A stretch of DNA of 64,000 bases from an uncultured delta proteobacterium. GTDB lineage: Bacteria; Desulfobacterota; BSN033; UBA1163. Of the stretch, positions 91-61,778 are shown piece by piece. Both the position numbers and the translations under genes were made by a program. The stretch spans positions 87,408 through 151,407 of the forward strand of contig CAVPSJ010000016.1 in NCBI GenBank assembly GCA_963708295.1, in the 5' to 3' direction. Under the pieces are notes generated by a model. That model was given only the letters and a program-made list of their open reading frames with translations. It had not been told where the DNA came from and made no database searches. Within the stretch, counting starts at the first letter, position 1, and every line of letters starts with the position of its first letter.

Positions 91-248
91 GAGACTGTAG
101 GAAAAGTCCCTGAGCAGATTCTCGGGGAGATGCAGAAAAACATGACCACACAGAATGCGCCACAATCAACGATCTCACGATGATGAAGGATCATGAGACC
201 CCCCCCAAAACACCCGTTAACTCTACTGAAGGGTTTTTCGACAGTCTC
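91..248. mobile_element. 158-bp MITE with GAGACTGT terminal inverted repeats and AGC target duplication
   Basis: Left end GAGACTGTAGGAAAA (91), right end TTTTTCGACAGTCTC (248); AGC at 88-90 and 249-251. The first ~85 bp match 57570-57653 on the minus strand. Confidence 0.8.
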
Positions 249-56667: not shown

Positions 56668-56866
56668 TTAGCGCCCCCGACAGATCCTCCCCTTCCTCCT
56701 TCGGCAAGCTCAGGATGGTGAGCCTGTCGAACCATTTACGAAGGGAAGGAATTACCCCTCTTTGGCAAAGAGGGGCGTGGGGAGTTTTTCAGAACAATAT
56801 GTCTGTTTAACTATGGACTCCATAGTAACCAGGCCTTAAGCTTATTTCATTGGTTAGTTGCCGTCC

Positions 56867-57502
56867 TCACTTTTGTGAAACCGTCACGAGCAAGTCAGAC
56901 GAGATACATTTCGCCAGGGGAGATGACCGTCTCGTCCGTCGGAACTTTATTCGCGTAGCGCTCCTTGATTTAGTGAACCGTGCGCCCTCGGCCGATGAGG
57001 TCCCGACTTTTTCTTTGCGTCTGCCGATACGAATGCGATCCCCGATCATGGATCTTCCACACGAGTTCGAGGACAATAGATTCGTTTTGCGAGACACATT
57101 TTTGCAAGAGTTTGATAAGGAATCATCCGGTTTATTTGCTGAGGGTCTTTAGCTCCATCCTACCAGAGTTCTTCCGGCAGGTGAATTAGAATCCGGATTG
57201 GCCTAGTGAAGGCGTTTTACGAGGTTGGCGGCCACCCTCGCCTCGGTGACCCCATTTTCTTAGTGGAGTACATTGAACCATCAAAATACATCATAGACGT
57301 GGGGACTGGGCATCCCTGAGAAAAACGATTCCCGATATGGCTGTACTGTGAGTGGGTCGCCTTTTGAAACTTGGAATGTTCTTTTCTGACCGCGACGTTT
57401 GGAAGATGATGTCTCCGTCCCGAACTTGCTCCGCAAAGGAGGTACCGCAGCTGAGCAAATAGAACGGGCCAGAGGCACGGCAAGAACAAGTAATTTCTTC
57501 AT
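56867..57502 (-). pseudogene. YiiX/YaeF-like permuted papain-like amidase, multiply frameshifted; probable third cassette
   Basis: Fragments in different frames: MKKLLVLA, RDGDIIFQTSRS, ATHSQYSHIG, SDLLVTV*. Confidence 0.65.
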
Positions 57503-57569
57503 GATGGTTCTCTTGGCAAATATTGAGGTGTTTGGCGTGCATAGAGACCGGAAAGTGGAGATGGTCCCC

Positions 57570-57653
57570 ATCGTTGATTGTGGCGCATTCTATAAGGTCA
57601 CTTTTTTCTGCATCTCGCCCAAGAATCTGCTTGGCGACTTTTTCTACAGCCTC
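57570..57653 (-). mobile_element. Truncated MITE of the 91-248 family, directly after the GTT of a partial attC arm
   Basis: Minus strand reads ...CTGAGCTTGGTCGTT|GAGGCTGTAGAAAAAGTCGCCAAGCAGATTCTTGGGCGAGATGCAGAAAAA...AGAATGCGCCACAATCAACGAT. Confidence 0.75.
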
Positions 57654-57664
57654 AACGACCAAGC

Positions 57665-58687
57665 TCAGTGACCGCTTGGTTCCAGAAAGTCCTCCACTGC
57701 CTGCCAGTATGCGTCGAACCGTTGCACCTGAGGGAGGTGTCCCACACCCTCGATCTCTACAAGGCGACAATTAGGAATTGCCGCCTTTGTCCTGCGCCCC
57801 AACTCCGGGTAGTTGCCCATCCTGTCTTTCACACCCGCAGGGGCCCAAGCTTTGCCGAGCGCCGTGCTATCCCTTTGTCCAACGATCAAGAGAACAGGCA
57901 TCTTGAGGTCCCCGAATTCATAGAGCACCGGCTGCGTGAATGCCATATCTGTCGTCAGGGCAGACAACCAAGCCATTCGGCACCAATCGGGCCCTCGAAT
58001 CCAGCCAGCTTGTATCTCGACAAGACTTTCATATTCTGGCTTCCAAGTGCCGCCAAAATAATTCTCCTTCATGTAATTGCGGACAGTATCCGCGGTGGAC
58101 TTGAGTTCATTGGCATAAAGCTCATCAACGGTCTTGTAGGGAACCAGCCTCTTCCAGTCCTCCAAGCCGATTGGATTCACAAGAACGAGCCGCTCGACGC
58201 GCTCAGGAAACATCAGAGCGAACCTGGTTGCCAGCATGCCGCCAATGGAGTGACCCACCACGGATACCTTATCAATATGAAGGCTATCCAGCAGAGCTCG
58301 TGTATCCGTGGCAAGCTCTTGAAAGGTAAACTGGAAGTGTTCCGGCTTCGATGATTTTCCAAAGCCGATCTGATCCGGGACGATGGCCCGGTATCCTCTC
58401 GACACAAGAGCACGAATCGTGGGTTCCCAGTATGCGCCACAAAAGTTCTTGCCGTGCAAAAGCAGAACCGTTTGACCATTTGCCTTCTTGGGAACCACTT
58501 CCATATAGGCCATTCGAAGAGTCTGCCCCTGAGAGGAAAAGGAGAAGCTTTTGACCTCAAATGGATAGGAGTAACCCGATAGATCGGCGTCGTAGGCAGG
58601 GCCTGAGTCAACAGCCTGGGCCTTCCAAGCAGAGAAAAGTAGCGTTCCCATGATCATTAACAAAAGCATACCGGTATTATTCTTCAT
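57665..58687 (-). CDS. Secreted alpha/beta hydrolase (cassette 2)
   Basis: [28 protein letters not shown]; RBS GGAGG a short distance after GTTAGGC. Confidence 0.9.
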
Positions 58688-58717
58688 GTAAAGCCTCCTG
58701 GATAAGGCGCAGTAGTC

Positions 58718-59169
58718 GCCTAACGAGCCTGTAGAAAAAGTCACTTTTTTAAAAACTGCTTCTTCTGCTGGATCAAAAATAGGAAATTATTTTCTGTCAT
58801 CAAAAGTTTTTACGATCCTTGGTGCAATGTTCGTCTTTTCATGATATTTTTCTTACCACAATACCATATCACCCAATCCGGCTCCGTTCACGCAAACTCC
58901 AGACCGTATCGATCGGAATAATCATATTCTTTGTATCTCGCCATCCAGTCCCTCCTAAGCGGTCCCCGCTCTCTTTTCCCTTACTGATATGGCGATATTA
59001 TCATGCTTTTAGGACTTTTTCTACAGCCTCAACGCCCGCAATAAGCTGCGAGCGGATCAAATAATCGCGAGCGAAGCGAGCTTCCGCAAACCGCTCGTCA
59101 GCTTCATTGCATCGTTGAACAACGGATTGAAACGACTTCAGAAGTCGTCTCAATCCTTATTGGTTAGGC
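58718..59169 (-). other. attC recombination site interrupted by two insertions
   Basis: Removing both inserts gives GCCTAAC-gatgc-AATGAAGCTGACGAGCGG...CCGCTCGCAGCTTATT-gcgggc-GTTAGGC: complementary R boxes and paired L boxes with extra-helical bases. Confidence 0.85.
58725..59030. mobile_element. 306-bp MITE inserted in the attC R' box
   Basis: TIRs GAGCCTGTAGAAAAAGTC / GACTTTTTCTACAGCCTC (17/18); AAC duplicated at 58722-58724 and 59031-59033. Confidence 0.85.
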
Positions 59170-59185
59170 GGACGGCATTCGCGGG

Positions 59186-60198
59186 CTACAACAACTCTGC
59201 GACGCCCTGGAACTTTGGAATGCGTCGTCCATGGGCGGCGTGGTAAGACTGAACGCCGTGTCTGGTCGCCGCTTGGTAGTGTTTCGCGACCTCTAGCGGG
59301 ACGTCGTGATTCTGCGGTGAGTAGAACTCCCGAACACTCTTGTCCCACACTTCAGAGGAAGGTCGAGATGGCGAGATCGGCATCGTCGCTCTGTGCTCCC
59401 CAGAGACAGTCAGCATCGTTCTGGAGGGGCCGCAACAAGAGCCAGGGGATGTCTACTACACTACCGCGGTGAAAGAGGACTTCCCCTTTCTGCACGGCTT
59501 GCGCATCCCCAAGGTGATCGATCCATCGACGTACCCCACCGGCCACACGACCGTTGTCTCCGCGCGCCTGCATTCTTCGCAGCGAGTCGATCCCAGCCTG
59601 GTCGATCGTTAAGAGGCGCCCGGCAGAATGCCGCTCCAGCTGGTACGCCCGAACGATCGCGGGACCCGGCGATGATGTTCCGAGGATCGATACCATCCAA
59701 GCGGGGGTCAGGCGTCGTCGCCGACGGGAGAAGAAGGACTTGACCATGGGCAATCGTCACGCGCGGTGCGATGAGGTGGATGAAGAAGGGCTTCGTGCCG
59801 CGGTCTAGATACTCGCGATTGAAGGCGAGGCATGCGTGCGAGAGTGCTACTCCGAATGCGACAGCCTGGTGGAACGTGGCAGCTATTGCGAATGTCGCGT
59901 CTGAAAAGCGCCGCACCGTGACGTTTGGAAAGCGCTCCGTTACGAGTGTGGACGCGCGGTCAAAACGGATGATGTTATTCAGCACAACGGTCTCGGACCG
60001 GAGGGCGCGGGAGGCGAATGCAACGAGGTCTGCGTAGACAACCCACCTCTCAGCCCACTCTTCGCGCCACTCACGTGAATCGACACGGCCAAGCTTGGCG
60101 GTGGTGATGTGGGCTGCCAAGGCCGGGAATGAGCGGAAGTGAGGTACGGTTAATGGGTCCTTACGCGGCACAGCGCTCACCTTACCCTTGACCTGCAT
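59186..60198 (-). CDS. Class III nucleotidyl cyclase-like protein (cassette 1), two frameshifts (~59670, ~59355)
   Basis: VVYADLVAF, RRFSDATF, RVTIAHG, IAG/PAIVRAYQLE. Joins ORFs 59461-60198, 59352-59753 and 59186-59416. Confidence 0.6.
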
Positions 60199-60214
60199 CG
60201 ACTGTTCGTGTTCC

Positions 60215-60275
60215 GCCTAACAGATATTAGAAAGAAAAATAATATTATGAGTTAATAATCCTACCTATTATACAA
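60215..60275 (-). other. attI-like site with an upstream TATAAT
   Basis: AT-rich ...TTTCTAATATCT-GTTAGGC begins cassette 1, compared with attI1 CCCTAAAACAAA-GTT; minus-strand TATAAT at 60267-60272. Confidence 0.55.
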
Positions 60276-60499
60276 TGTCTTATTCTGGGCTAACCCGTTA
60301 CAAGCTAAAGGGTTCTATGGTGAAAATCATGGATATCCATAATTCCTCCATAGAGTCCGGCGGATATGTGAAGAAAGCAAAGAACAATAATATAATGCGG
60401 GCTCTCCGGGGCATGCAGTCTCGGTGTGCCCGGGATGATAGAACACTATCAAAAAAGGAAAGGGGCGTCAAGATAGCTAAAACGGAATGATTTTTGAAA

Positions 60500-60662
60500 G
60501 GAGTCGATAATTGATTAGACATACCCTTCTGAAAATCTCCCCCGACCCCTCTTTGCCAAAGAGGGGAATCCCTCCCTTTCGTAAAGCCTGCCCGCCGGTA
60601 GGCAGGGGAGGAAAGGAAGGATTCAGTCTCCAGCGTCTATACAATTATGGACTGACTAATAA
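60500..60662. repeat. MITE of the 28171 family with a nested CCTGCC..GGCAGG hairpin
   Basis: GAGTCGATAATTGATTAGACAT...CCCCTCTTTGCCAAAGAGGGG...CAATTATGGACTGACTAATAA. Confidence 0.65.
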
Positions 60663-60685: not shown

Positions 60686-61778
60686 TCACCCGGCAGGTTC
60701 TTCGTCGCGGCGGCAGCGAAGCCCCTCTTTGCCGATGCCGACCCGGCACCGGTCATCTCTTGTACAGGAGACAGGCTCCCAGCGGCCGGCACGGATCTTG
60801 TTGACAAGATCGGGTTCGCAGATAAAGGGCCTCGCAAGGGAGACAAAATCGGTCCATCCTTCCGTGATGATCTCCTCCATGAGATCTGGAGACCGGAGCC
60901 CGCCCACTAAACTCAGGGGCAGCTTTCCCACCTTCGGACGAACGGCTTTGGCATAGGGGAGAAAATAGGCCTCCTGCTCTCTGGAAAGGATATTACTGCG
61001 GCTTGGGACTGGTTTTGTCGCAACGCCGGCGCTTATCTCGATCGCATCGATCCCTATCCTCGCAAGGCGGCCAGCTGTTTCCGCACCCTCTTCCAGGGTA
61101 GCCCTTCTTCCGTATCATCTTTGATTCCCAATTTGATGGCCACCGGATAATCGTTTCCGACCGCTTTGCGGATCGAACGGTAGACTTCTTCAAGGAACCG
61201 GAAGCGCCTCGAAGCATCTCCGCCCCATTCATCGGTCCTATGGTTGGTCAGAGGAGAAGTGAAGAGACTTACCAGATACCCGTGGGCGCCATGGATGAGA
61301 ATTCCATCCAATCCGGCCTCTCGAACCCGGGCAGCAGCCCGGCCAAAGGCATCGACGATTTCCCGGATCTCTGAAGACTTAAGCTCACGCGCGAGAAGTC
61401 CTGTGGAGGGATTGACGACAGGAGAGGGTCCTACGGGCTCCGCACACTCCTTTTCAACCCGGCTTCCTCCATAGTTGAGCTGAGCAAAGACATAACAGTC
61501 GTGGCGGTGGATCACTTCAGCCAACGAACGGAGCCCTGGAATGAGACGGTCGTCGTGAACCCCTGTCATCTTCGGAGAGGCTTTCCCAGGGGATGAACAA
61601 AGGCGTGGCCCAGGAAGATGCAGGCTGCGCCGCCCCGCGCAATGGCCTCATAGAAATCGAGCATGGCCGGGGTCACCTCTCCATTGGGCCCTGCCATGCT
61701 TTCCAACGTCGAAGATTTGATGAAACGATTTTTGAGAGTTAATCGACCAATTTTATAGGGTTCAAAAAGAATAGACAT
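60686..61778 (-). pseudogene. Second copy of the OYE-family oxidoreductase, frameshifted (decay or read errors)
   Basis: Fragments MSILFEPYKIGRLTLKNRFIKSS, IHGAHGYL and GKEGLRCRRDE are nearly identical to 14412-15506. Confidence 0.85.

Follow-up and report, generated by a model that had tools for sequence, protein, structure and literature searches.

A probable attC site interrupted at both core boxes by non-autonomous derivatives of an IS1182-like and an IS91-family insertion sequence

The attC site of integrons is a folded single-strand recombination site. Analysis of a stretch of 64,000 nucleotides from an uncultured delta proteobacterium (assembly GCA_963708295.1, contig CAVPSJ010000016.1, positions 87,408 to 151,407 of the forward strand; the whole stretch is called the window, and positions are counted along it) leads us to conclude, with good confidence, that positions 58718 to 59169 hold a single attC site which lies between two cassette-like genes of the minus strand and has been interrupted by two unrelated, non-autonomous derivatives of insertion sequences (ISs). 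The first insert, in the R' core, is a 306-bp miniature inverted-repeat transposable element (MITE). Sequence comparison indicates that it arose by internal deletion from an IS of the IS1182 family, 1.8 kb long and encoding a DDE transposase. The second, a 46-bp foldback at the R'' core, is the terminal oriIS module of a 2.48-kb IS91-family element, here called H, and not a terminal inverted repeat (TIR) element with a target duplication. Here we establish the identities and ends of both inserts, the flank statistics and orientation rules of the lineages to which they belong, and the attC nature of their targets. An earlier note on this DNA had proposed that two short TIR elements, each duplicating GTT, had struck both core boxes of one attC site; the coordinates it gave for both inserts and for the boxes were all confirmed in the sequence. 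The features are collected in Table 1.

The terminal inverted repeats of the MITE are 18 nt long and complementary at 17 of 18 positions, and AAC stands on either side of the element (58722-58724 and 59031-59033), bearing out the earlier claim of a 306-bp TIR element in the R' core with GTT duplicated. Two segments of the insert, positions 1-189 and 191-306, have their matches in several related genomes at a distance of about 1.8 kb from each other, and full-length copies of the MITE (300-320 bp, 82-93% identity) are also present in several related genomes; altogether, matches to the insert were found in 18 of the 61 genomes searched, G000 counted. An autonomous IS with the same ends, as envisaged in the earlier note, was thereby found. 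One genome carries seven identical copies, each with a length of exactly 1800 bp, and the IS encodes a 517-aa transposase, whose best NCBIfam model is IS1182 (NF033551, 251.5 bits) and which scores above the Pfam cut-offs for DDE_Tnp_1_6 (79.4 bits), DUF772 (50.3 bits) and DDE_Tnp_1. The deletion that gave rise to the window copy has its joint after 58913, and at this point contigs from public sequencing runs diverge from the window into sequence common to the contigs (agreement 0.9-0.99), which is tentatively read as the interior of the full IS. The only open reading frame (ORF) of more than 50 aa that overlaps the MITE, of 81 aa at 58819-59061, matched no family in Pfam.

The 18-mer motif of the MITE ends has five matches in the window at up to three mismatches, against 0.04 expected, a recurrence that exceeds chance. 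Besides this full MITE, the window's own genome has a second, incomplete copy on a different contig, the element at 91-248 and two related ends; since these copies were too few for a test of the flanks, related genomes were searched. Among the distinct ends of the fetched loci, the flank on the side of the left inverted repeat (IRL) ended in GTT in 30 of 33 cases and in CGTT in 28, while on the side of the right inverted repeat (IRR) the first bases of the flank were GTT in 37 of 40 cases, 31 of which continued as GTTA. When all loci were taken together, including those of other phyla, 113 of 124 distinct ends were flanked by GTT or AAC. Enrichment at GTT and attC, by which the earlier note proposed that its idea should stand or fall, was thus displayed by autonomous ISs and MITEs alike. 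Insertion follows a single orientation, in which the upstream, attC-bearing sequence is invariably next to the IRL and so to the 5' end of the transposase gene, and the transposase gene is co-directional with the cassettes. Upstream flanks resemble the 3' halves of attC sites, and downstream flanks often read GTTRRRY followed by a ribosome-binding site and ATG, as at the start of a cassette.

The triplet on both sides is a true 3-bp duplication, since one copy (locus L042) has ATT on either side and the 158-bp element at window positions 91-248 has AGC on either side. This last element lies outside any attC site, its ends differ from the 18-mer at two and four positions, and it shows that the duplication made by the family is not tied to GTT. 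Tandem insertions occur in loci L030 and L018, where one IS1182-like copy has entered the GTT/GAGG junction made by another, which suggests that recognition rests on the attC side and the GTT and not on the bases past GTT.

A wider scan, in which species-representative genomes were searched with the transposase, returned 45 loci from Thermodesulfobacteriota or "delta proteobacterium" metagenome-assembled genomes, Nitrospirota, Thermodesulfovibrionia, Desulfobacteraceae and several Gammaproteobacteria; by our count the lineage is present in genome records of three phyla, Thermodesulfobacteriota, Nitrospirota and Gammaproteobacteria. The CGTT-IRL and IRR-GTTA junctions are kept in these loci, whose transposases are 50-89% identical. 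In cultured Pseudoalteromonas piscicida (NZ_CP074588.1) there is an IS of 47% identity, again bordered by GTT at either end.

The nature of the targets was examined with an alignment (A1) of 19 upstream flanks from other genomes, from which the window site was left out; three rows, L010a, L052 and L054, aligned poorly and were retained. An R-box and L-box structure with one bulged base was found to pair in 85.9% of the cells of A1, against 22-46% in slid controls, and compensatory cells numbered 21, against 8.2 +/- 2.2 in shuffles, with the observed value reached in 0 of 500. A covariance model (R1) was built from A1. Two simpler approaches had been dropped in favour of alignment and model: when cured sites were simply searched for an R'' that pairs with R' at every base, 2-3 mismatches mostly remained, and the choice of partner by minimum free energy was noisy. 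With filters off, R1 gave one significant match in the window, at 59031-59124 on the minus strand (27.2 bits, E 3.3e-6), with the architecture AAC, 5 nt, 3 bp, one bulged base and 6 bp, and with the inner GTTCAAC serving as R''; the next match was the hairpin at 57654-57689 (Table 1). A sequence-only hidden Markov model gave weak scores, 7.3 bits with the hairpin removed and 4.7 bits for the native sequence.

Elsewhere R1 found 55 matches in 47 loci, training sites included, and around the insertions it revealed other, uninterrupted sites that share their strand and are spaced at 0.4-1.2 kb. Of the 16 wider-scan loci with an evaluable IRL, nine have an R1 match whose end is exactly at the base preceding it, and 20 of 21 matches are on the transposase strand. 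R1 is less sensitive toward long attC sites. As a control, the 20 kb beside an integron integrase of P. piscicida NZ_CP074588.1 (459.7 bits, cut-off 265) contained seven R1 matches, all seven on the expected, integrase-divergent strand. The Pseudoalteromonas IS itself follows an attC-like stretch of about 95 nt, within a same-strand array of R1 matches; R1 gave no match at this flanking stretch. Together these results show that the targets of the IS1182-like lineage are attC sites, and that the lineage sits in the GTT of their R' core, with GTT duplicated and in a single orientation. In two genomes of one genus, ORFs of 135-141 aa (L069, G010:C1:720662-721045, and L070, G003:C3:782919-783275) gave 191-bit matches to the C-terminal half only of the integron integrase model, and are possibly truncated intI genes.

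The window site itself has the parts of an attC site. The genes on both sides are on the minus strand, so the top strand of the site is the minus strand, and with this strand the assignment of the MITE to R' and of the hairpin to R'' in the earlier note is right. GCCTAAC at 58718-58724 and GTTAGGC at 59163-59169 are exact complements, and removal of both inserts by their coordinates leaves a 94-nt "cured" sequence in which cores of the form RYYYAAC and GTTRRRY pair. The fold of this sequence, with an energy of -27.5 kcal/mol (DNA parameters), starts from a terminal stem of 8 bp and leads through a small internal loop to a long stem. R'' pairs within the fold, and the long stem carries two single extra bases, both on the 3' arm of the plus strand, so that the extra-helical bases lie on one arm, as in the imperfect, L-box-bearing hairpins of attC sites. 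When the inserts are left in place, the look-alikes GTTCAAC and GTTGAGG, both present on the minus strand, stand in as cores in the R1 alignment. The earlier reading of the site as attC, and the earlier suggestion that it might still fold through its look-alike boxes, are consistent with the cured fold, the complementary cores and the R1 match.

The second insert proved to be of another kind. The foldback (59117-59162) consists of 16-nt arms at 59124-59139 and 59141-59156 that are 94% complementary, with GTT at 59114-59116 and 59163-59165. It occurs once in its own genome. In seven family genomes of other genera it recurs at 89-98% identity, reaching 98% over about 52 nt; the possibility that the hairpin is native attC sequence was rejected on account of these 98% identical copies elsewhere. 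In most of the seven genomes the foldback is the last 50 nt or so of the conserved element H, and the window module is collinear with the last 49 nt of H. The claim that the foldback is an independent short TIR element with a 3-bp duplication did not survive this identity to an IS91-family end. The window module itself carries no gene. H encodes a 363-aa protein that matches the IS91 model NF033538 with 354.3 bits (cut-off 125) and the Pfam families Y2_Tnp (180.7 bits) and Zn_Tnp_IS91 (99.4 bits). Upstream of this transposase gene lies a 318-aa ORF for a tyrosine recombinase, whose best models are XerA and integron integrase (172 and 169.7 bits, both below the cut-offs).

The left end of H reads GTTCAAG followed by a small hairpin, and the right end reads CTTGAAC, 3 nt, a 16-bp hairpin and TTATTG, so that the hairpin lies 6 nt from the end. 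Both ends are defined by tandem junctions in loci L171 and L214, where TTATTG is joined directly to GTTCAAG. Tandem H-H junctions or short GTT-bounded repeats of the H end were seen at L171 34-72, L214 near 1260, L159 2487-2525 and in L201, where a 19-nt partial, GTT-bounded repeat of the H end follows a full H; these look like by-products of rolling-circle initiation or termination. Passages of PMC13181058 describe for IS91, IS801 and IS1294 a Y2 HUH transposase, a subterminal oriIS palindrome, a tetranucleotide required beside oriIS, a GTTC-type terIS (GTTC itself in IS801 and IS1294), no target duplication, and imprecise or one-ended events. H is like them in these respects and probably also in the lack of a duplication, although the GTT with which it starts is the same as that of its target. 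The anatomy of H fits that of the IS91 family, with GTTA as the tetranucleotide.

The right flank of H is GTTA in all seven family copies. A metagenome set of 80 relatives, taken from 494 confirmed stretches, provided 55 evaluable right flanks, of which 36 were GTTA by automatic projection, with two more a few bases further; GTTAGGC was the commonest heptamer (12 of 55). At the left end, an R1 site adjoins H in 21 of 37 evaluable copies, and the first GTT of the element substitutes for the complement of the AAC of R''. R1 matches in H loci were antisense to the H transposase in 52 of 55 cases. H thus lies exactly between R'' and the spacer of an attC site, antisense to the cassettes, and this is where the window's hairpin lies.

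The window module begins with GTTGAAC where H has CTTGAAC. The GTTGAAC-initial form also occurs between two H copies in L171, and a variant of it follows the end of H in L159. Because GTT stands on either side, the module boundary is ambiguous by 3 nt, and 59117-59165 is equally possible. The best reading is that the left GTT is the module's own first three bases and the right GTT belongs to the target; the left GTT is so read because IS91-family elements are described, in the passages of PMC13181058, as making no target duplication. The relic may have arisen in one of two ways: the transposase cut H at its internal CTTGAAC, 49 nt short of the end, or there was an internal deletion, which would have joined the TT of the H left end and the TT of an internal CTTG-type site. 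In three loci (L078 1509-1543, L082 1074-1107 and L085 1505-1539) the H-end hairpin takes the form of a perfect 46-nt palindrome of two inverted ends. These palindromes are flanked by TAAC and GTTA and lie among R1-type attC sites at cassette-like spacing; they may be attC sites themselves or fold-back products of H.

The recombinase gene of H raises other readings of how it moves. The boldest, which we regard as doubtful, is that H is a self-integrating cassette-like element whose circular junction rebuilds an attC-like site of about 60 nt, with perfectly complementary 7-nt cores (CTTGAAC and GTTCAAG), a 16-bp hairpin and spacers of 3 and 6 nt, and that the 49-nt piece is the smallest cassette, an attC alone. 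H would then enter attC at G/TT on the strand that IntI normally avoids, which would give its strict antisense position at R''. More broadly, the move onto attC would have been made independently in four or more classes of enzyme, namely DEDD, intron reverse transcriptase, DDE, and HUH either alone or together with a tyrosine recombinase, each leaving a surrogate core so that the cassette would stay mobile.

Unlikely in our judgement is the related proposal that H and the 49-nt module move by site-specific recombination, as cassettes do, and not by rolling-circle transposition: the attC-like H junction (CTTGAAC, 3 nt, 16-bp hairpin, 6 nt, GTTCAAG) would be recombined at G/TT with resident R'' ends by the Xer/IntI-like recombinase of H or by a host IntI, and the 49-nt piece would be an attC-only mini-cassette. 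The recombinase gene, with its XerA and integron integrase profiles, speaks for this, as does the CTTGAAC 49 nt from the right end, an exact complement of the left-end GTTCAAG. The window's G followed by TTGAAC, where H has C followed by TTGAAC, is the expected outcome if each of the two sites was cut after its first base, ahead of TT; both junctions are at G/TT, as at cassette boundaries, and junctions of oriIS end to terIS end do occur in L171 and L214. However, R1 finds no junction match in L171 or L214 at E values up to 0.1, integration at R'' would need the strand that IntI normally disfavours, and a 49-nt circle is very small as a recombination substrate. Moreover, an oriIS palindrome, a tetranucleotide and a GTTC terIS are standard, in the passages of PMC13181058, in IS91-family elements that have no such recombinase.

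The idea that both inserts are short DDE-type TIR transposons duplicating GTT, the foldback being a minimal, TIR-only MITE, is improbable. GTT does stand on both sides of the foldback, palindromic 46-nt forms of two inverted ends exist (L078, L082, L085), and every full H has GTT before CAAG at its left end, so that the sequence would allow a GTT duplication. Against this, the foldback is collinear with the interior plus end of an IS91-family element and not with two inverted ends, the TAAC and GTTA that border the palindromic forms are inverted with respect to each other, whereas a duplication would be a direct repeat, and the tandem H junctions (TTATTG-GTTCAAG) hold a single GTT; the H family also encodes an HUH Y2 transposase, a type said in the passages of PMC13181058 to make no duplications. 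Least credible of all is a target that is a generic hairpin (a terminator or one resembling a repetitive extragenic palindrome) carrying AAC and GTT by chance, hit by hairpin-seeking ISs, for although the genome yielded no integrase and the window no array, and IS1272 of the same family is described in part of PMC4923244 as targeting terminator hairpins without sequence specificity, the flanks share TAAC/GTTA cores, a bulged L-box, 5- to 6-nt spacers and a ribosome-binding site and ATG after GTTRRRY, they lie in same-strand arrays, R1 finds an array beside a true integron integrase, and insertion is at one exact position in one orientation.

Several observations weigh against our preferred reading, that of one attC site interrupted by derivatives of an IS1182-like and an IS91-family element. 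A regular expression for RYYYAAC...GTTRRRY pairs found no intact canonical attC in the window, so the surroundings are not an obvious cassette array, and no integron integrase at or above the TIGR02249 cut-off was found in the window's genome (91% complete, 20 contigs). Neither insert's transposase is encoded in that genome, and the 251.5 bits of the 517-aa transposase fall just below the NF033551 cut-off of 270. RNAalifold predicted no consensus structure for A1; the structure tested on A1 was read from the same sequences, so that the test leans its way, and R1 was built on the targets themselves. Beside the second integrase of the Pseudoalteromonas record (595 kb) R1 found no match, and there was one repeat pair only. 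By automatic projection 19 of the 55 right flanks of H are not GTTA, and 16 of the 37 left ends have no R1 match. The cut position within GTT is not readable from the sequence, so that H may yet make a 3-bp duplication. An empty site for the window copy was sought in 41 related genomes, where the cassette at 59031-60230 has no homologue except the hairpin, and one for another IS copy in 15 genomes of its genus, where the flank has no orthologue; contigs of four public runs, short and broken at repeats and so of little weight, contained no joint that skips either insert. With no empty site found, insertion is deduced from the flanks and not seen directly. Two of the public-run contigs, X1 record 7 and X3 record 15, possibly from the source sample, extend from the right-hand portion of the MITE across the attC and the hairpin into the cassette. 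No array of like-oriented sites beside an integrase is seen here; the flanking genes are co-oriented and there is one further weak site (E 0.22), which leaves either a solitary attC or a mini cluster that lacks an integrase.

The way in which the site was interrupted can be proposed in outline, although the cutting chemistry, the recognition by the transposases, the origin of the 49-nt relic and the recombination of interrupted sites are matters that we infer. The IS1182-like transposase would recognise a folded or cruciform attC, the likeliest features to be read being its stem, its spacer and the attC-side GTT, a proposal made beside the hairpin targeting of IS1272 in the same family, and would cut the GTT of R' with a 3-nt stagger, so that GTT is duplicated. 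As the IRL starts with GAGG, the upstream attC would retain a look-alike R' core, GTTGAGG. H would act by single-strand rolling-circle chemistry on the folded bottom strand beside GTTA, inserting directly 5' of the bottom-strand GTTAGGC that is the complement of R''. It would leave an AAC-ended heptamer beside the spacer, CTTGAAC in H and GTTCAAC in the window copy. With surrogate cores kept, the attC body may still recombine, and the element may travel within the cassette. The R1 score of the native site through its inner box is compatible with a recombining attC body.

The surroundings of the site do not readily read as an integron. The start codon of the hydrolase gene lies 35 nt beyond the MITE. 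GTTAGGC is not enriched in the window (five matches against 4.3 expected). It recurs at 60215-60221 on the minus strand, directly upstream of the 245-aa ORF, with AT-rich sequence before it and no attC body, and may be the outer boundary of a small cassette cluster. At the other end of the hydrolase gene, the GTT of the 36-nt hairpin directly adjoins an IRL (57636-57653) in which the end motif has no mismatch; 57570-57689 is perhaps a second, degenerate attC struck by the same element family. A promoter and terminator scan of 58600-59250 found one of each, no more than in shuffles, and an outward promoter in the MITE is therefore unsupported. A search of 57400-60400 against Rfam gave no family at E values up to 1. 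Copies of an abundant short palindromic repeat, unrelated to both inserts, lie at 56700-56830 and 60520-60640; with blastn-short, this repeat was matched dozens of times, on the majority of the genome's contigs. At 60993-61778 an Oxidored_FMN (NADH:flavin oxidoreductase) gene is broken over several overlapping minus-strand frames, probably as a frameshifted pseudogene or through an assembly error. Elsewhere in the genome, three near-identical clusters of adjacent tyrosine-recombinase genes (C8:163885-165589, C12:133-1837 and C5:100209-101922) look like copies of a multi-recombinase mobile element.

Table 1. Features of the interrupted attC site and its neighbourhood, in window coordinates
Feature	Position	Strand	Basis
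MITE, 306 bp; IRL 59013-59030 (attC-body side), IRR 58725-58742	58725-59030	-	both ends match the 1.8-kb IS
49-nt terminal (oriIS) module of element H ("mini-H"); hairpin 59124-59156	59114-59162	+	collinear with the H end
attC body: spacer, L'' arm, variable loop, L' arm, spacer, GTT of R' (59033-59031)	59031-59116	-	R1 match and fold
R'' core, GCCTAAC on the minus strand; cut off from the rest of the site by insert 2	59163-59169	-	complement of 58718-58724
Second GTT copy (58724-58722) and AGGC; distal R' core, start of the next cassette	58718-58724	-	flanking repeats
Downstream cassette gene, alpha/beta hydrolase, 341 aa	57668-58690	-	Pfam Abhydrolase_1, 95.4 bits
Upstream cassette gene, 245 aa	59464-60198	-	ORF without family match
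Short AAC...GTT hairpin, 36 nt, overlapping the hydrolase stop codon	57654-57689	-	R1 13.3 bits, E 0.22, not significant
Truncated end (IRL half) of a related MITE of the 158-bp type	57570-57653	-	86% identity over 80 nt to window 91-248

Both inserts lie outside the known attC-homing groups, of which the earlier note had named IS1111/IS110-family elements and group IIC-attC introns. Elements of the IS1111-attC group (ISPa21, ISKpn4, ISPst6 and relatives, within IS110/IS1111) are likewise ISs at one end of the attC sites of integron cassettes, with a fixed position and orientation. They are not known to make a target duplication. Their transposase is of the DEDD type, guided by a seekRNA, and their repeats are subterminal, whereas the transposases here are DDE (IS1182) and HUH Y2 (IS91), and insert 1 has terminal repeats and a 3-bp duplication of GTT that set it apart from the group. 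A lineage of group IIC introns is described, in part of PMC3001079, as inserting into attC sites, and a report on a group IIB intron belongs to the same attC-related literature (PMC7923331). Group IIC-attC introns consist of a ribozyme and a reverse transcriptase, and neither insert's element encodes a reverse transcriptase.

Closer in ancestry to insert 1 is IS1272, or TnSha1, of staphylococci, an IS1182-family element described in parts of PMC4923244 and PMC5678879 as targeting DNA hairpins. Insertion of IS1272 is not specific for a primary sequence, occurs in either orientation and without a duplication, and removes part of the hairpin; in contrast, the lineage of insert 1 uses the exact GTT of R', a single orientation and a 3-bp duplication, and leaves the hairpin intact. 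For H, the difference from IS91, IS801 and IS1294 lies in the target, which for these is a bare tetranucleotide (CTTG, GTTC or GTCC) and for H is GTTA, usually within a GTTAGGC-like R'' core, and in the presence of a gene for an Xer/IntI-like recombinase in place of orf121. IS1202-family ISs, according to part of PMC10132070, target dif/pdif sites at a fixed distance and orientation from the tyrosine-recombinase site; with another recombination site and another transposase family, they are an analogy only. An attC-specific lineage of the IS1182 or the IS91 family was not described in the literature searched, and ISfinder or TnPedia may hold named members.

The earlier idea that short TIR elements target the GTT of attC therefore stands as regards targeting, and is widened to two lineages; the elements do not form one class, belonging as they do to the DDE and HUH superfamilies. 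The data support the addition of two attC-homing habits, that of an IS1182-family DDE clade and that of an IS91-family HUH clade, each with its own position, orientation and junction rule. If confirmed, they would represent repeated convergent evolution on a single DNA structure, and would provide two new systems for the study of how transposases read structured targets and possibly orientation-specific insertion tools. Split attC sites, together with their cassettes, may escape integron annotation. The elements may lock cassettes in place or hitchhike on them, and the look-alike cores left beside the attC body suggest selection for a cassette that remains recombinogenic, with the IS riding on it between genomes.

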